A stretch of 44,784 nucleotides of DNA from Escherichia phage mutPK1A2, in sequence record NC_047889.1; one strand, given 5' to 3'. Shown here in pieces: positions 35,884 to 41,537 of the stretch; positions within the stretch are counted from its first letter, which is position 1; every line of letters starts with the position of its first letter. The position numbers and the translations under genes were made by a program. Under the pieces are notes generated by a model. The model was given only the letters and a program-made list of their open reading frames with translations. It was not told the origin of the DNA and did no database searches.

Positions 35884-36078
35884 ATGATTAACTCCGAACT
35901 GGTAGATAGTGGTGTGAAGCTGGCGCCACCTGCATTAGTATCAGGTGGGTACTTCCTCGGTATCAGTTGGGATAATTGGGTGTTAATAGCAACATTCATT
36001 TATACCGTGTTGCAAATTGGAGACTGGTTTTATAATAAGTTCAAGATTTGGAGGGAGAAGCGTGAGCGTACACAATAA
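35884..36078 (+). CDS. Holin (T7 gp17.5-like)
   Basis: 64 aa; RBS AAGGAGGTG; LGISWDNWVLIATFIYTVLQIG resembles T7 holin FGLSLNEWFYVAAIAYTVVQIG; one TM helix and a basic C-terminus. Confidence 0.7.
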   Translation: MINSELVDSGVKLAPPALVSGGYFLGISWDNWVLIATFIYTVLQIGDWFYNKFKIWREKRERTQ

Positions 36079-36361
36079 ACATGCAGCTACAGAGGATGAG
36101 GTTGGCATTCTGCATGGTGCTATTACCAAGATGTTCAACAAGAAAGCACAGGCAATACTGGACACTATAGAAGGGGATCCAGATGCAGCACTGGCTTTAG
36201 TGTCCGGTAAGGACATTGGAGCTATGTGTAAGTGGGTACTGGATAATGGCATCACTGCTACACCTGCTGCACAGCAGGAAGAATCCAAGTTATCTAAGCG
36301 CCTCAAGGCTATCCGAGAGGCATCAAGTGGCAAGATTATTCAGTTTACAAAAGAGGAGTAA
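36062..36361 (+). CDS. Putative terminase small subunit
   Basis: About 100 aa from GTG 36062 behind GGAGGG (track start 36017 is TTG inside the holin gene); upstream of large terminase. Function by position only. Confidence 0.45.
   Translation: MSVHNKHAATEDEVGILHGAITKMFNKKAQAILDTIEGDPDAALALVSGKDIGAMCKWVLDNGITATPAAQQEESKLSKRLKAIREASSGKIIQFTKEE
36154..36176 (+). promoter_or_regulatory. Promoter-like element AATACTGGACACTATAGAAGGGG inside the small terminase gene
   Basis: Core CTGGACACTATAGAAGG conserved; would drive HNH and large terminase. Confidence 0.5.
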
Positions 36362-36364
36362 GAG

Positions 36365-36697
36365 ATGATAAAGCAGATAGAGGAGGAAGGATATACAATA
36401 CTGCCGGAAGGTGTGATTCTTAGTAAGAGAAAACAACCTATGCGGTTTAGTGTTAACCATAAAGGCTATGCACGTATTGGTTTGATGCTAAAAGGCAAGC
36501 AACGCTTCTTCTATCTGCACGTCATTATTGCTACTAAATTCTGTAAGAAGCTACCACACCATACTCAAGTTAATCATAAAGATGGCAATAAATTGAATAA
36601 CGCTAAAGATAACTTAGAGTGGTGTACTGCTAGCGAAACATACTGCACAAATACCATGGAGACATACAAGGAGATATTACTTTGTACTCTAAGATGA
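36365..36697 (+). CDS. HNH endonuclease (homing-endonuclease type)
   Basis: 110 aa; HKGYARIGL...FFYLHVIIATKF...VNHKDGNKLNNAKDNLEWCTASE is the HNH_3-type motif pattern; strong RBS AGGAG. Confidence 0.8.
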   Translation: MIKQIEEEGYTILPEGVILSKRKQPMRFSVNHKGYARIGLMLKGKQRFFYLHVIIATKFCKKLPHHTQVNHKDGNKLNNAKDNLEWCTASETYCTNTMETYKEILLCTLR

Positions 36698-36795
36698 AAG
36701 AACTAAGAGCTGTAGGAATGACCTATAAGCAGATAGCACAGAGCTTAAATGTAAGTGTGGCTACCGTGTTTAAACATTGTAAGGCAGGTGATTGA
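36694..36795 (+). CDS. Small helix-turn-helix ORF (33 aa), possibly the detached DNA-binding tail of the HNH endonuclease
   Basis: MKELRAVGMTYKQIAQSLNVSVATVFKHCK reads as an HTH; its ATG overlaps the HNH stop (ATGA) in the -1 frame and its stop overlaps the large terminase start. Confidence 0.4.
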   Translation: MKELRAVGMTYKQIAQSLNVSVATVFKHCKAGD

Positions 36796-38693
36796 TGGCT
36801 AAGGCAAGAGAATCACAAGCAGAGGCTCTTGCCAGATGGGAGATGCTACAGGAATTACAGCAGACCTTTCCTTACACAGCGGAAGGTTTGCTTCTCTTTG
36901 CAGATACAGTTATTCATAACTTGATTGCAGGCAAACCTCATCTGATTCGTATGCAGGCCGATATTTTAAAGTTTCTATTCTATGGACATAAATATCGCCT
37001 CATCGAAGCGCCCCGTGGCATCGCTAAAACTACACTATCAGCAATCTATACTGTTTTCCGTATCATCCATGAACCCCATAAGCGTATCATGGTAGTGTCC
37101 CAAAACGCCAAGCGAGCAGAGGAAATTGCAGGTTGGGTAGTGAAAATCTTCCGTGGCCTAGACTTCCTTGAGTTTATGCTACCGGACATATACGCTGGCG
37201 ACCGTGCATCAGTCAAAGCATTTGAGATTCACTACACGTTACGCGGCAGCGATAAGTCACCTTCTGTATCCTGTTACTCTATCGAAGCAGGTATGCAGGG
37301 TGCTCGTGCTGATATTATTCTAGCAGATGACGTAGAATCGATGCAGAATGCTCGTACAGCAGCAGGCCGCGCCTTGCTTGAGGAGTTGACCAAGGAGTTT
37401 GAATCTATTAACCAATTTGGTGACATCATCTACCTTGGGACGCCTCAGAACGTAAACTCTATCTACAATAACTTACCTGCTCGTGGTTACTCGGTTCGTA
37501 TCTGGACCGCACGTTATCCTTCAGTAGAGCAAGAGCAATGTTATGGTGACTTCCTTGCACCTATGATTGTGCAGGATATGAAAGACAACCCAGCACTTCG
37601 CTCTGGTTATGGGTTAGACGGTAACAGTGGTGCACCTTGCGCACCTGAAATGTACGATGATGAAGTGCTGATTGAGAAGGAAATCTCTCAGGGTGCGGCT
37701 AAGTTCCAGCTTCAGTTTATGCTTAATACTCGCATGATGGATGCTGACCGCTATCCGCTACGCCTGAATAACCTCATCTTCACTTCATTCGGTACAGAGG
37801 AAGTCCCTGTGATGCCTACATGGAGCAACGACTCTATTAACATCATTGGCGATGCACCGAAGTATGGCAATAAGCATACAGACTTTATGTATCGCCCTGT
37901 GGCCCGACCTTATGAGTGGGGTGCTGTTACCCGCAAGATTATGTATATTGACCCCGCAGGTGGCGGTAAGAACGGGGATGAAACTGGTGTGGCTATCGTC
38001 TTCCTGCACGGCACATTCATTTATGTGTATCAGTGCTTTGGTGTGCCGGGAGGATACCGCGAATCGTCCCTGAATCGCATTGTGCAGGCCGCAAAGCAGG
38101 CAGGTGTTAAAGAGGTATTCATTGAAAAGAACTTTGGTCATGGCGCGTTTGAGGCCGTTATAAAGCCATACTTTGAACGAGAGTGGCCTGTGACTCTGGA
38201 GGAAGATTACGCCACCGGACAGAAAGAGTTGCGTATCATTGAAACACTAGAGCCACTAATGGCGGCCCACAGGCTCATCTTCAACGCAGAGATGGTCAAG
38301 TCTGATTTTGAGTCGGTACAGCACTATCCGCTTGAACTACGCATGTCATACAGCCTTTTCAATCAAATGTCGAACATCACGATTGAGAAGAACAGCCTAC
38401 GACACGATGACCGCTTAGACGCTCTGTATGGCGCTATACGGCAATTAACTTCTCAGATAGACTATGACGAGGTTACACGGATTAATCGCCTCAGAGCGCA
38501 GGAGATGCGCGATTACATCCATGCTATGAACACACCTCACCTCCGTAGGGCAATGCTCTATGGAGATTATGGCACTGAGCGAAGAGTAACCAACACTTCC
38601 GTGGCTATGCAGCAAAGAGTATACGGTCAGAATTACAGGAGTAAATCGGCAAGCAGAAATACACTTTCTGCAAGGATTTCAAGGACTTATTAA
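36795..38693 (+). CDS. Terminase large subunit
   Basis: 633 aa; Walker A-like APRGIAKTT; size and position typical of T7 gp19. Confidence 0.85.
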   Translation: MAKARESQAEALARWEMLQELQQTFPYTAEGLLLFADTVIHNLIAGKPHLIRMQADILKFLFYGHKYRLIEAPRGIAKTTLSAIYTVFRIIHEPHKRIMVVSQNAKRAEEIAGWVVKIFRGLDFLEFMLPDIYAGDRASVKAFEIHYTLRGSDKSPSVSCYSIEAGMQGARADIILADDVESMQNARTAAGRALLEELTKEFESINQFGDIIYLGTPQNVNSIYNNLPARGYSVRIWTARYPSVEQEQCYGDFLAPMIVQDMKDNPALRSGYGLDGNSGAPCAPEMYDDEVLIEKEISQGAAKFQLQFMLNTRMMDADRYPLRLNNLIFTSFGTEEVPVMPTWSNDSINIIGDAPKYGNKHTDFMYRPVARPYEWGAVTRKIMYIDPAGGGKNGDETGVAIVFLHGTFIYVYQCFGVPGGYRESSLNRIVQAAKQAGVKEVFIEKNFGHGAFEAVIKPYFEREWPVTLEEDYATGQKELRIIETLEPLMAAHRLIFNAEMVKSDFESVQHYPLELRMSYSLFNQMSNITIEKNSLRHDDRLDALYGAIRQLTSQIDYDEVTRINRLRAQEMRDYIHAMNTPHLRRAMLYGDYGTERRVTNTSVAMQQRVYGQNYRSKSASRNTLSARISRTY

Positions 38694-38714
38694 TTACCGG
38701 ACACTATAGAAGGA
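38692..38714 (+). promoter_or_regulatory. Phage promoter AATTACCGGACACTATAGAAGGA
   Basis: Consensus core immediately after the terminase stop; followed by an AT-rich TAGGT-repeat leader and hairpin GGGTGTAC-TCCT-GTACACCC. Confidence 0.7.
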
Positions 38715-38845
38715 AGGCCCAGATAATAAGAGAAATAACAAGGATAATATAGGTTAACCTAGGTTATATAGGTATTCCTTAGTATGGGTGTACTCCTGTA
38801 CACCCTATTCCTTACTTCCTTACTATATTAACTATAATAGGAGAT

Positions 38846-39127
38846 ATGATGGCTAATGAGTACAGCAATCAGCCTTTAACAGGCCGATATGACAGAAAAC
38901 AAGTACAACCAGTTAGTGAACACTTAATGGTCCCAAGTGTTAACACTAATATTGATCTATACAACCCAGCAAAACAGGCTAGTGTTATTAATGATACCAC
39001 AAAGTCCGGTAAGCAACTCGGAGCTATGCTTGTAACAGAAATGGGTGTCCTGATGCTAGCCCGTGGAGGTGAACCCACAAGCAAGTGGGACCAGACAAAG
39101 ACATCAGAGATTATTGTTCCAGCCTAA
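38846..39127 (+). CDS. Paralog family member 1 (93 aa), unknown function
   Basis: RBS AGGAG; shares the motif SGKQ-x-GAM-V...L..AR...P.S.WD with the next ORF. Confidence 0.6.
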   Translation: MMANEYSNQPLTGRYDRKQVQPVSEHLMVPSVNTNIDLYNPAKQASVINDTTKSGKQLGAMLVTEMGVLMLARGGEPTSKWDQTKTSEIIVPA

Positions 39128-39143
39128 TAAGAGGAGAAAAGAT

Positions 39144-39431
39144 ATGCCTAAGTATGGAGATGCAAACACTGTAACAGGTCAGTCCTTCCGTGTTAAAGAT
39201 GTTCAAACTATTGCAACTGCACTGCCATTGCCTGTGGTAGCAGAGGCAGACCTTAAATCTAAAGCACACCCAATTAACATCCACCATCTTTCGGGTAAAC
39301 AAAAAGGAGCCATGGTTGCGGTACAGAAAGCAGAGGGATCGCTATATATCGCTGTAGCACGAGATGCACTACCTGAATCTCCGTGGGATGCCACTACAAT
39401 GGAAGGTACCGCTGTTACGCCAGCGGGGTAA
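39144..39431 (+). CDS. Paralog family member 2 (95 aa), unknown function
   Basis: ATG 39144 with RBS AGGAG; contains HLSGKQKGAMVAVQKAEGSLYIAVARDALPESPWD. Confidence 0.6.
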   Translation: MPKYGDANTVTGQSFRVKDVQTIATALPLPVVAEADLKSKAHPINIHHLSGKQKGAMVAVQKAEGSLYIAVARDALPESPWDATTMEGTAVTPAG

Positions 39432-39438
39432 TATTATC

Positions 39439-40116
39439 ATGTTAGGTATTACAGGACAACGAAGTTTAAGTCATCAATCAAAGGTTGCCACGGAAGTGGC
39501 TCCTATTGTTGATATCTCAGAGGTGTCTGACGTTAACTCTTATCTAAACCAAAAGCACCTATCAGGTAAACAGGAAGACTATACTGTTCTGGCTAAGAAA
39601 GGTTCACGTTATTCATTGTATGCTGCAACAGGTTCTAAGCCAGAAGATAAGTGGTTGCCTTTAGAGCAAGCAACCCTACCTGATTCGAGTGCGTTAGATC
39701 TAATTGACACCATCGATGTTGAAGTTGCAAGTGCAAGCGACACAGTAGAGGTTAATGTAACCAAAGAGGGGACTGTGTGCATCCAGACGCCTATGAAGGG
39801 CTTAGCAGGTGATACAGTTTACCGGCAAGAATTGACTGCCAATATTAACCTTACCATTAATGAAAACGGAAGCCAAAGCGATACGGTTAAATTAAACATA
39901 TCAATTCCTAATTTGCCAGGAACATCTAGTGGTTCTTACTATACAGTTGACAATGTGCTGTGTACTTCTTTTGGAGACGACAGTCCTGTTATTGCCAATA
40001 TAGATGTCGATAAGGCTACCACTAACTTGATTGCTGTTACACTTCGTAAAGAGACGGCAACAGACATTAAGCTGTCTCTTGTAATTAGGTGGTCAATGCC
40101 AGTGGAGGTTGTATAA
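39439..40116 (+). CDS. Paralog family member 3 (225 aa; paralogous N-domain plus C-terminal extension)
   Basis: ATG 39439 (track start 39364 overlaps the upstream gene); N-terminal region has the same TGQ...HLSGKQ...WLP architecture. Confidence 0.55.
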   Translation: MLGITGQRSLSHQSKVATEVAPIVDISEVSDVNSYLNQKHLSGKQEDYTVLAKKGSRYSLYAATGSKPEDKWLPLEQATLPDSSALDLIDTIDVEVASASDTVEVNVTKEGTVCIQTPMKGLAGDTVYRQELTANINLTINENGSQSDTVKLNISIPNLPGTSSGSYYTVDNVLCTSFGDDSPVIANIDVDKATTNLIAVTLRKETATDIKLSLVIRWSMPVEVV

Positions 40117-40460
40117 TGCTTAACAAGTACTTCAAGCGTAAAGAGTTTGCTTGCCGTTGTGGGTGCGGTACATCCACTGTTGATGCTGAGTTATTACAGG
40201 TAGTCACAGATGTACGTGAGCACTTTGGTGCTCCTGTAGTTATTACTTCTGGACACCGCTGTGCTAAGCACAATGCTAATGTGGGAGGTGCTAAGAACTC
40301 CATGCATCTTACTGGTAAGGCTGCTGACATTAAGGTACAAGGTACTACACCTTACCGTGTATGGTCCTATCTAACAGCACGCTACCCCAATAAATATGGC
40401 ATTGGGTCTTATTCTAATTTCACCCACATTGATGTAAGAGAGGGATGTGCACGATGGTAA
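40116..40460 (+). CDS. Endolysin, M15-family zinc peptidase
   Basis: 114 aa from ATG 40116 (RBS GGAGGT); the FKRKEFACRCGCG...SGHRC...H...D pattern is characteristic of M15 peptidase endolysins. Confidence 0.75.
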   Translation: MLNKYFKRKEFACRCGCGTSTVDAELLQVVTDVREHFGAPVVITSGHRCAKHNANVGGAKNSMHLTGKAADIKVQGTTPYRVWSYLTARYPNKYGIGSYSNFTHIDVREGCARW

Positions 40461-40585
40461 GATGTATTGAATGGTGCGAGCGCAGGGTTGCTCAAGCTGC
40501 CGAGGATGGCAACTATGATGACTGGAAGAACTACTCTGACTTGTTAGCTCAATGGAAAAGGAGATGCAATGAAAAAGCTGTTTAA
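40454..40585 (+). CDS. Small hydrophilic ORF (43 aa)
   Basis: ATG overlapping the endolysin end; weak SD; short. Confidence 0.25.
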   Translation: MVRCIEWCERRVAQAAEDGNYDDWKNYSDLLAQWKRRCNEKAV

Positions 40586-40718
40586 GTCTAAGAAAGTGGT
40601 AGGTGCACTGGTTGCACTGGTGATTGCTCTTGTTTCTGTAGGTCTTGGCGTAGACCTAGGTGAAGGTACGGAAGGCTCCGTCACCGACGTGGTATGCCAA
40701 GTAATCACCTGTGAATAA
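40569..40718 (+). CDS. Small membrane protein (49 aa, one TM helix), lysis-associated candidate
   Basis: Strong RBS AAAAGGAG; MKKLFKSKK then hydrophobic VVGALVALVIALVSVGLGV then acidic tail; lies in the lysis cassette. Confidence 0.4.
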   Translation: MKKLFKSKKVVGALVALVIALVSVGLGVDLGEGTEGSVTDVVCQVITCE

Positions 40719-40932
40719 GGTGCTAGAGGTGGTAGTAGGTCTTATTGGCCTGCTGCTTGCCGCTAAGAAGAAGAAGGAAGAGAAGGAGGCACAAAGTGAG
40801 GCGAATCATGCTAGCGACAATCCTGCTGATTGGTTCGCTGATCACTTCAGGGTGTCAGACGGCGTTACCAGAGAATCCAAAGGTGAAGCCTCTGAAGCCG
40901 ACGCTTACGGCAGTCTACGAGGTGGACGATAA
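40711..40932 (+). CDS. Small TM protein ORF, i-spanin-like candidate (start uncertain, GTG 40711/40729)
   Basis: Hydrophobic N-terminus VVGLIGLLLAA then a charged region; a lipoprotein ORF is embedded in another frame, as in Rz/Rz1 pairs; short for an i-spanin. Confidence 0.3.
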   Translation: MNKVLEVVVGLIGLLLAAKKKKEEKEAQSEANHASDNPADWFADHFRVSDGVTRESKGEASEADAYGSLRGGR

Positions 40933-41005
40933 AGTCTGTTTCAGTAAGCCTGACGCTACAAAATTAGGTCTGTATATTCTCTCGCTAGAACGCGGGTATA
41001 ATTAA
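40808..41005 (+). CDS. Putative o-spanin-like outer-membrane lipoprotein (Rz1-like)
   Basis: ATG 40808 with GAGG upstream; MLATILLIGSLITSGC has a lipobox-like TSGC; Pro-rich mature region; overlaps the previous ORF out of frame. Confidence 0.4.
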   Translation: MLATILLIGSLITSGCQTALPENPKVKPLKPTLTAVYEVDDKVCFSKPDATKLGLYILSLERGYN

Positions 41006-41034: not shown

Positions 41035-41057
41035 ATTTACTGGACACTATAGAAGAG
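41035..41057 (+). promoter_or_regulatory. Phage promoter ATTTACTGGACACTATAGAAGAG (tailspike promoter)
   Basis: Exact consensus upstream of the tailspike region. Confidence 0.75.
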
Positions 41058-41135
41058 ATAAGATAGGCCGTTCTTTTGAGCGGCCTATTACTAGCCAATC
41101 TTCATAGGGAGGGTTGGGACGTAATAGGAGAGTAT

Positions 41136-41276
41136 ATGGCTAAGTTAACTAAACCCAAGACAACGGGCTTACTACATAGAGATACTGTACTAGCTACCTT
41201 ATTAGATAATTTACTATCTAAAAGGCGTGTTACATTTGAAGGTGTAGTTCCAAGTGAAGATACTAAATTGAGATAG
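41136..41276 (+). pseudogene. Short ORF (46 aa), possible N-terminal remnant of a lost second tailspike gene
   Basis: Good RBS (AGGAGAG) right after a strong promoter but only 46 codons (MAKLTKPKTTGLLHRDTV...), followed by about 260 bp of non-coding DNA; in related two-tailspike phages a full tailspike gene sits here. Confidence 0.4.
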
Positions 41277-41537
41277 AAGTACCTGCAACAGGAGATTTAG
41301 ATTCTTCGTGGGCATCACTTGTATCATTAAGTACACCTACACTTTGTACAGCTTGGATTACTAAAGTGTCAGATACTAGATTAGAAGTACATGTGTTCCA
41401 TACAGCACAAGTTGAAATAGACATAGATGTAGATGTTTACATTCTAGGTAAACACATTGTCAGTGCGTAAGCACTGCTTTTCGCGCAACTTTTCTTAAAG
41501 GTTATCATGATGGTAGCCTTTCAGAAAAGGAGGTTAC

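Follow-up and report, generated by a model that had tools for sequence, protein, structure and literature searches.

Which proteins disrupt the outer membrane at the end of infection by a K1E/SP6-like podophage? The question is raised by the genome of Escherichia phage mutPK1A2 (NC_047889.1; 44,784 nucleotides, the whole stretch analysed and referred to below as the window), in which a cassette of four stop/start-coupled (translationally coupled) small genes follows the endolysin gene. We call these open reading frames (ORFs) a, b, c and d; b and d correspond to gp44 and gp45 of phage K1E. The last two, c and d, overlap out of frame, and a first-pass annotation had likened them to the overlapped spanins Rz/Rz1 while leaving the assignment uncertain. 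We propose that c and d are a genuine module, conserved in many phages and occupying the Rz/Rz1 position, and that its upstream member is, by prediction, not a canonical inner-membrane spanin (i-spanin). None of the four genes has a match in Pfam or NCBIfam. All four show ratios of nonsynonymous to synonymous change (pN/pS) of 0.17–0.35 in frame, compared with 1.0–2.5 off frame.

ORF d (40796..41005, + strand) encodes a 69-aa lipoprotein of the outer-membrane spanin (o-spanin) type. It matches phrog_8971 'Rz-like spanin' (3.4e-39) and belongs to the o-spanin family of K1-5, K1E, SP6 and UAB_Phi78 (Kongari 2018). The lipoprotein had previously been placed at 40808..41005 with a lipobox-like TSGC; the out-of-frame ORF and its lipobox stand, but the start is most likely the GTG at 40796 (VRRIM...) rather than the ATG at 40808, because the GTG lies 6 nt after AGGAGG and yields a protein of 69 aa, like K1E gp45. 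The two proteins are identical except for the GTG-encoded first residue. The signal peptide, MRRIMLATILLIGSLITSG, has a basic n-region and ends in the lipobox ITSG followed by Cys at residue 20 (codon 40853-40855), and the K1E lipobox is likewise entered as ITSG in the table of Kongari 2018 (PMC6139136). I-T-S-G-C fits a PROSITE PS51257-type pattern and fails the strict pattern [LVI][ASTVI][GAS]C. On its own the loose pattern is weak evidence, since it matches 13 ORFs in the window, 12 of them background; of these, d alone occupies a gene slot of its own and recurs, conserved, in 165 phage records. Position +2 is Gln and not Asp, as expected for sorting to the outer membrane. The mature part of 50 aa contains 5 Pro, one further Cys and the conserved C-terminus LGLYILSLERGY.

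The d gene overlaps ORF c (40711..40932, + strand; 73 aa; phrog_9219, 3.3e-35) by 137 nt. ORF c begins with a GTG situated within the stop region of b (TGTGAATAA), has no Shine-Dalgarno sequence and is unannotated in K1E, vB_EcoP_B and PSK8, so that it might be regarded as a non-coding by-product whose frame is kept open only by its overlap with the lipoprotein gene. An unconstrained tail (40855-40932), which is predicted to be disordered, would agree with this. The distribution of substitutions, obtained from Nei-Gojobori counts pooled over 37 minimum-spanning-tree edges among 38 unique sequences, does not. In the 85 nt of c that lie outside d, pN/pS is 0.35 in frame c compared with 1.18 and 2.47 in the off-frame controls, and within the first part of the overlap, where the core of c faces the signal peptide of d, the constraint falls in frame c (0.27) rather than in frame d (0.97). 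Only in the later overlap, between the tail of c and the linker of d, is this reversed (1.33 in frame c, 0.49 in frame d), and the C-terminal part unique to d gives 0.17 in frame d. The constrained core of c (40711-40854, residues 1-48) comprises an N-terminal hydrophobic/amphipathic helix, a KKKK cluster and the segment EAQxEA...NPADWFADHFRV, and it ends exactly at the lipobox Cys codon of d; c and d therefore split the selective constraint between them.

Further insight comes from more distant relatives. ORF c is open and conserved at the protein level in phages of Escherichia, Salmonella, Klebsiella, Proteus, Pseudomonas, Edwardsiella and Erwinia, with the motif KEQ..AQ.EA....P.DWF..HF (NPxDWFxxHF). 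An exhaustive profile search with c recovers 68 clusters at 50% identity, nearly all of 58-95 aa, in which the motifs of the protein are retained down to ~25-30% identity. Within the SP6-like loci the start of c always sits on the stop of b, as TGTGAATAA in the enterobacterial clades and as TAATG, TAGTG or ATGA, with canonical starts, in divergent clades; the ATG starts in the TAATG and ATGA junctions are a further argument against a non-coding origin, an explanation that we regard as effectively refuted and to which we assign hardly any residual likelihood. Judged by these patterns of conservation, ORF c is a real gene.

The pair behaves as a unit across phages. A lipoprotein-seeded sample gave 45 lipoprotein-bearing SP6-like loci (15 from GenBank and 30 from IMG/VR), and b, c and d occur together in 45/45; a search of viral contigs starting from b returns no contigs beyond those found with d. 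The c/d overlap is seen in every c-bearing locus examined, comprising the 45 SP6-like loci, one additional locus (L081 in our numbering) and 30/30 distant loci, in which a d-type lipoprotein gene (KPTKPTL..C..DA.KLG.YI.ELE) overlaps c in another frame. The embedded ORFs described in the first-pass annotation are, in other words, conserved in relatives. The full alignment of distant c proteins is too divergent for a pattern search. At L081 and the distant loci the layout is that of a variable protein with one or two transmembrane (TM) segments, then c, stop/start-coupled to that upstream gene, and then the overlapping d-type lipoprotein gene. The gene upstream of the distant c/d pair is not b-like in 28/30 loci, and encodes a 2-TM protein, another small TM protein or an endolysin (L090/L091). 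These upstream TM proteins belong to at least four unrelated families, one of them a 2-TM family annotated as holin (phrog_34682), and a Pfam search finds no match for them. Wherever this was checked an endolysin adjoins the module: a PF00959 lysozyme at L083, an M15 peptidase at L084 and L113, and a 214-aa lysozyme-like ORF at L090/L091.

The two genes are also lost together. Three cultured Klebsiella phages (K44PH129C1, pKP-M186-2.1 and HY) lack both c and d and have retained a, b, the endolysin and the T7-type holin; scanned over their whole genomes, they show no other credible lipoprotein. In the lineage of Klebsiella phage vB_Kpl_K44PH129C1 (L079/L082) the c/d deletion is clean and lies between the stop codon of b and the SP6-type promoter upstream of the tailspike gene. 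The Klebsiella phages without c/d are viable natural 'spanin-less' mutants. In Era103, which belongs to the same subfamily, a canonical i-spanin of 119 aa and an o-spanin of 85 aa occupy the same slot and b, c and d are absent.

Because the overlapped c/d pair is the conserved unit while the upstream TM gene is interchangeable, we tentatively favour, at somewhat less than even likelihood, a model in which c/d is a functional module in the Rz/Rz1 position with c as an atypical partner of d, and in which b is a holin-family protein. The comparative data favour c over gp44 as the co-inherited partner of gp45, as far as sequence comparison can tell, contrary to the prevailing database assignment. 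Like an i-spanin gene, c is overlapped by the o-spanin gene and co-inherited with it.

Several observations nevertheless weigh against this model, beginning with the N-terminal helix of c. An ORF with a TM segment had been reported here; the ORF exists and has a hydrophobic N-terminal helix, but not a robust transmembrane domain (TMD), as the mean Kyte-Doolittle hydropathy over 19 residues (KD19) is 1.59, the Hessa 19-residue sum +7.2 and the 21-residue Eisenberg <H> 0.30. Across the family <H>21 is 0.15-0.37, below 0.42. The best 15-residue hydrophobic core contains 1-4 charged residues in 21/24 c proteins (family median 2) compared with 0 in five curated i-spanins (lambda Rz, K1F 18.5, K139, K1G and Era103) evaluated by identical metrics. 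Moreover, the K/R of c proteins lie mainly behind the helix (2-6, compared with 0-1 in front of it), opposite to the pattern in these controls. If the helix were inserted, the positive-inside rule would place the conserved domain in the cytoplasm, away from d. Thus c lacks a predicted N-in/C-out TMD, the defining property of i-spanins, and by this test is not a canonical i-spanin. The likeness of the last pair to Rz/Rz1 holds for the overlap and not for the topology, since an N-in/C-out TM protein is not a credible description of c for the family as a whole, and the caution first expressed over the spanin assignment was justified. Outside the helix, one d-like lipoprotein (Vibrio PVP-XSN) occurs without c, and the overlap may in itself have locked c and d together and so account for part of their conservation.

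Weak hydrophobicity would not by itself rule c out, as the T7-family i-spanin has a KD19 of 1.23, equal to the c median of 1.23; the T7-family i-spanin is TMHMM-negative in the table of Kongari 2018 (PMC6139136). A hydrophobic moment of 0.65 marks the helix as plainly amphipathic in the MR4 and Edwardsiella lineages. An AlphaFold2 (AF2) model of c shows a helix over residues 3-34 that is continuous with the hydrophobic segment, a second helix at 38-45 and disorder from residue 51, and has no globular fold (predicted template-modelling score, pTM, 0.27); ~55 residues of c come after the hydrophobic stretch, and the mature part of d supplies 50 more. The net charge of c is -4 to +1, and c contains no Cys. 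On one TARA scaffold (L113, 329-616) a 2-TM holin-like gene (TM1 + loop) is fused in frame to the c domain and the fusion is overlapped by a d-type lipoprotein gene. We considered this fusion (L113/P0165) as a Rosetta-stone clue to a periplasmic c domain and discounted it as a one-off deletion or artefact, because it forms a singleton cluster and its nearest relatives (100% identity over the aligned part) are two separate proteins.

The alternative partner of d is b (K1E gp44; 40569..40718, + strand; phrog_4712), which is, as first reported, a 49-aa protein with a single TM segment following the endolysin. Its TMD is robust (19 uncharged residues, Hessa 19-residue sum -1.6), and with 5 N-terminal Lys and no K/R among the first 10 residues beyond the TMD, b is predicted to be a bitopic type II (N-in/C-out) membrane protein. 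Its periplasmic part is only ~21 residues long and ends in CxxxxCE. The window b differs from K1E gp44, as quoted in the supplement of Kongari 2018, at 1/49 residues, and has a pN/pS of 0.27. The two rival explanations that have to be weighed against c as the partner of d draw on b and c respectively. According to one, b and d constitute a minimal 'separated' two-component spanin and c is an accessory, a regulator or irrelevant to outer-membrane disruption. This is the curated assignment for K1-5, K1E and SP6 (Kongari 2018, PMC6139136), where gp44 is listed as i-spanin and gp45 as o-spanin, and the window b and d are orthologues of these proteins. It also speaks against our preferred model that b combines a robust N-in/C-out TMD with two periplasmic Cys and d adds one further Cys, as in Rz and Rz1; and that in T7-like ICP3-type phages, which lack c, a b-like gene of 46-47 aa is TAATG-coupled to an unrelated lipoprotein gene, the two lying between the terminase subunit genes exactly at the T7 18.5/18.7 slot. 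The selective constraint on b is in keeping with a function of this kind. Indeed, we first favoured b/d on account of the topology, the Cys pattern, the ICP3 synteny and the replacement in Era103, and downgraded it in view of the unrelated upstream genes at the distant loci and of a match of the b family to TM1 and the loop in phrog_34682, the 2-TM 'holin' family (88% probability in hhalign, E=2.9e-6; E-values from single-sequence-database pairwise BLAST were not taken as evidence of homology). The distant loci suggest that d-type lipoproteins generally do without a b-type partner, and b stays in place when c and d are deleted; b has the N-terminal TMD of an i-spanin and neither the periplasmic length nor the co-inheritance with an o-spanin. 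The ~21 periplasmic residues of b and the 50 of d make 71 in total, and the curators themselves remarked on gp44 'Too small?', 'Too short' and 'the only argument... just behind the endolysin' (Kongari 2018, PMC6139136). The SP6-like contig L080 has, at 1029-1145 and upstream of an M15 endolysin gene, a 38-aa ICP3-type mini-lipoprotein with a mature part of 22 aa, and downstream a b without Cys; these two are far too short to span the periplasm. We consider b/d as the spanin quite unlikely.

The other rival would place c on the cytoplasmic face, as a lysis factor acting at the holin step (an antiholin, a holin-assembly factor or a timing factor), with d acting alone, with b or with host factors, and with the overlap as genomic lock-in. 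The precedent is Lcc6 of Shewanella phage LambdaSo, a 65-aa protein with a TM segment at 5-22 and a predicted cytoplasmic tail of 43 aa, which is needed for lysis at holin level, besides holin, endolysin and spanin (bioRxiv 10.1101/2024.01.23.576932). The comparison is one of architecture only: Lcc6 and c share an N-terminal hydrophobic helix and a charged tail (~45 residues in c), but the Lcc6 gene is remote from the lysis genes and shares no overlap with a lipoprotein gene. The charge bias of c, which predicts an N-out/C-in orientation or peripheral binding, its lack of Cys and its invariable stop/start coupling to an upstream holin-like membrane gene would all suit such a role. Specific binding to a holin is, however, difficult to reconcile with a c domain that is conserved next to upstream membrane proteins of at least four unrelated families, and the gene for the recognised holin of K1E-like phages lies at a distance of 4.6 kb. 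Furthermore, c is lost with d and not with the holin or b, and it is absent from Era103, which has canonical spanins. We rate a cytoplasmic c as a serious alternative, somewhat less likely than the preferred model, and what likelihood is left falls to some other partner of d.

The remainder of the lysis set is readily assigned. A holin of the T7 type (gp17.5-like, equivalent to K1E gp38) is encoded at 35884..36078 (+ strand), after the tail adaptor gene as the first-pass annotation had it. It has 64 aa, matches PF10746 (Phage_holin_2_2; E=1.5e-27, 95.5 bits compared with a cut-off of 25.4 bits) and phrog_920 'holin' (5.8e-28), and is a small protein with one TMD and the basic, charged C-terminus KFKIWREKRERTQ. 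The gene is flanked by the gene-37 adaptor/tail-fibre gene and by the small terminase gene, which its 3' end overlaps, a slot shared with K1E (gene 38) and ICP3 (gene 17.5). The endolysin (40116..40460, + strand; 114 aa, equivalent to K1E gp43) is, again as reported, an M15 zinc peptidase encoded after the terminase and a cluster of paralogs. It matches Peptidase_M15_3 (PF08291, E=9e-34) and phrog_894; an NSMHLTGKAAD segment with the H-x6-D motif aligns weakly to the zinc site of 1LBU (Zn D-Ala-D-Ala carboxypeptidase), and THID is found near the C-terminus. As its N-terminus, MLNKYFKRKEFACRCG, has no hydrophobic stretch and no signal or signal-anchor-release (SAR) sequence, the enzyme is predicted to be cytoplasmic and holin-dependent. 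The Era103 endolysin, in contrast, has by eye an N-terminal hydrophobic signal/SAR-like segment.

Between the endolysin gene and b lies ORF a (40454..40585, + strand), a fourth conserved small ORF that the first-pass annotation missed. It encodes a soluble protein of 43 aa (46 aa from the ATG at 40445) matching phrog_1312 (4.7e-18), its start overlaps the stop of the endolysin gene (ATGGTAA), and its pN/pS is 0.30 compared with 1.13 and 1.25 off frame. It is kept in all SP6-like loci with an invariant CxxWC. An unannotated a-like ORF is also present in Era103 (L046, 2990-3118), 3' of the canonical spanin genes. ORF a is not tied to b, c or d.

Family membership thus identifies a holin, a putatively cytoplasmic endolysin and a lipoprotein predicted to be targeted to the outer membrane, and according to the general model of Gram-negative lysis these would act in turn: the T7-type holin would permeabilise the inner membrane at a set time, the released endolysin would then cut the peptidoglycan, and the outer membrane would then be disrupted by a module built around lipoprotein d. 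In our preferred model, in which c and d fill the Rz/Rz1 position, the overlapping and co-inherited c would be the partner of d, while b would be a conserved truncated relative of the 2-TM holin-like family residing in the 'holin slot' of the cassette, and might serve as a second holin, an antiholin or a membrane anchor but not as an i-spanin. As for how the two proteins could meet, c may act as a weakly or peripherally anchored partner, or it may not encounter d until the inner membrane has been breached by the holin. That c reaches d through holin lesions, or that b, c and d form a three-part assembly, is speculative. A more far-reaching version, to which we attach a low probability, is that c/d represents a widespread variant of the outer-membrane disruption system, whose partner protein would be a small amphipathic-helix protein that is soluble or peripheral and not type II, meeting the lipoprotein after the holin breach or as the middle of a b+c+d assembly.

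It is instructive to compare the module with known systems. The arrangement recalls the 'overlapped' spanins Rz/Rz1 of lambda (Summer 2007; Kongari 2018, PMC6139136) in that the lipoprotein gene starts out of frame inside an upstream small gene, the pair stands at the distal end of a holin/endolysin cassette and the small lipoprotein is rich in Pro and has a single additional Cys. It departs from Rz/Rz1 in that c, with its charged helix and reversed charge bias, has neither a clean N-in/C-out TMD nor a Cys, and lacks a long coiled-coil domain for the periplasm, being disordered outside a core of ~48 aa. Closest is the pair of the SP6-like phage UAB_Phi78, classed as 'overlapped' (Kongari 2018, PMC6139136): its 69-aa i-spanin is the c orthologue and its o-spanin the d orthologue, the coordinates agreeing after a version shift of 119 nt. 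There the UAB_Phi78 protein was a singleton with a TMD, whereas here it falls into a family of 68 clusters, the helix of which tends to be amphipathic and not transmembrane. As a small amphipathic-helix protein of a podophage, c also resembles gp28 of phage phiKT, a disruptin involved in outer-membrane disruption (bioRxiv 10.1101/515445). That protein, however, is a cationic peptide that works by itself, in a phage that has no spanin. With its neutral to acidic net charge and its constant pairing with lipoprotein d, c does not fit the disruptin type.

The separation of the lysis genes into two loci, described in the first-pass annotation, is correct but not unusual. It is the ordinary layout already known for K1E/SP6-type phages, and mirrors the separation of 17.5 from 18.5/18.7 in T7. 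In T7 the functions are scattered likewise (3.5 amidase, 17.5 holin, 18.5/18.7 spanins) and a homologous holin (PF10746) is found at the same position; the window differs in having an M15 peptidase in a late cassette instead of the gp3.5 amidase, and in that the genes at the spanin position, which have no relation to 18.5/18.7, follow the large terminase gene and do not lie between those for the two terminase subunits.

Current annotations of these genes conflict. RefSeq and PHROGs give b (gp44) as 'holin' and d (gp45) as 'Rz-like spanin' and leave c unannotated; b is also labelled 'i-spanin' in the SP6 record and by CPT, and the b/d assignment has been copied into the SP6, LL11 and Premi records. 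In the SP6 record AY288927.2 the coding sequence 'gene 48, o-spanin' (L004, 941-1138) is in frame c, from an internal GTG start and without a lipobox, and the true lipoprotein frame (record 39670-39880) is unannotated. The same genes thus carry three clashing sets of labels: gp44 is 'holin' or 'i-spanin', and c is 'i-spanin' in one phage, 'o-spanin' by mislabelling in the SP6 record and elsewhere unannotated. Our literature search found no functional study of SP6/K1E gp44, gp45 or the c gene.

The surrounding region is that of a K1E/SP6-like podophage genome (Vectrevirus, Molineuxvirinae, Autographiviridae); the match rests on a 5.3-kb region with ~90% identity to phage PSK8 and, over the shared parts, ~95% to K1E. 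All its genes are on the + strand, in an order common to K1E, vB_EcoP_B, PSK8, SP6 and K1-5 (gene 37, holin, terminase genes, gp41/42, endolysin gp43, gp44, gp45). The window has 10 K1E/SP6-type promoter sites compared with 0.03 expected by chance. A phage RNA-polymerase promoter core at 38699..38714 (+ strand; 1 mismatch to GGACACTATAGAAGRG) precedes the paralogs, the endolysin and a-b-c-d, and the next promoter, at 41042..41057 (+ strand; exact match to GGACACTATAGAAGAG), marks the end of the lysis cassette and drives a split gp46 homologue and the endosialidase tailspike gene; the two promoters flank the paralogs, endolysin and a-b-c-d as one late unit. A scan for sigma-70 promoters and terminators gave background levels only. 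Another exact core, GGACACTATAGAAGGG, lies at 36160-36175 within the small-terminase coding region, just 3' of the holin gene.

Two inserted ORFs separate the small terminase gene from the large one: an HNH endonuclease gene (PF13392, E=5.5e-10) within 36365-36795, and a 37-aa ORF at 36682-36795 that looks helix-turn-helix-like by eye. K1E has instead a different homing endonuclease, which splits the large terminase gene (40A/40.5/40B). Three paralogous genes are situated 5' of the endolysin gene (38846-40116; phrog_2725 and phrog_32357): two encode gp41/42-like proteins of ~93-95 aa, and one a 225-aa protein (phrog_32357) whose N-terminus is paralogous to both and which, as a third gene, is present in PSK8 and absent from K1E. 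Pfam lends no support to the RefSeq label 'acetyl-CoA acetyltransferase' on gp41/42, which looks as if it had been propagated from one annotation to the next. Beyond the cassette, the homologue of K1E gp46 (131 aa) is broken into an N-terminal ORF of 66 aa (41076-41276) and a C-terminal ORF of 34 aa (41366-41470), the break being due to a sequencing error or a frameshift, or marking a pseudogene. Past the region, an ORF of 811 aa is homologous to the K1E tailspike, which is an endosialidase according to the vB_EcoP_B record.

The observation with which the first-pass annotation began is confirmed and its interpretation is partly supported, and for the window itself the main value lies in a corrected annotation of an ordinary K1E/SP6 lysis set. 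The consequences of the c/d module would reach further. If c is indeed a soluble or peripheral partner, rupture of the outer membrane would be intrinsically holin-dependent. If c partners the lipoprotein without a canonical membrane anchor, the spanin model of a pre-assembled two-membrane bridge that is freed by degradation of the peptidoglycan would not fit a sizeable group of podophages, including therapy-relevant phages of K1, Klebsiella, Proteus and Salmonella, and spanin-finding pipelines that require a TMD would systematically mis-call such phages.

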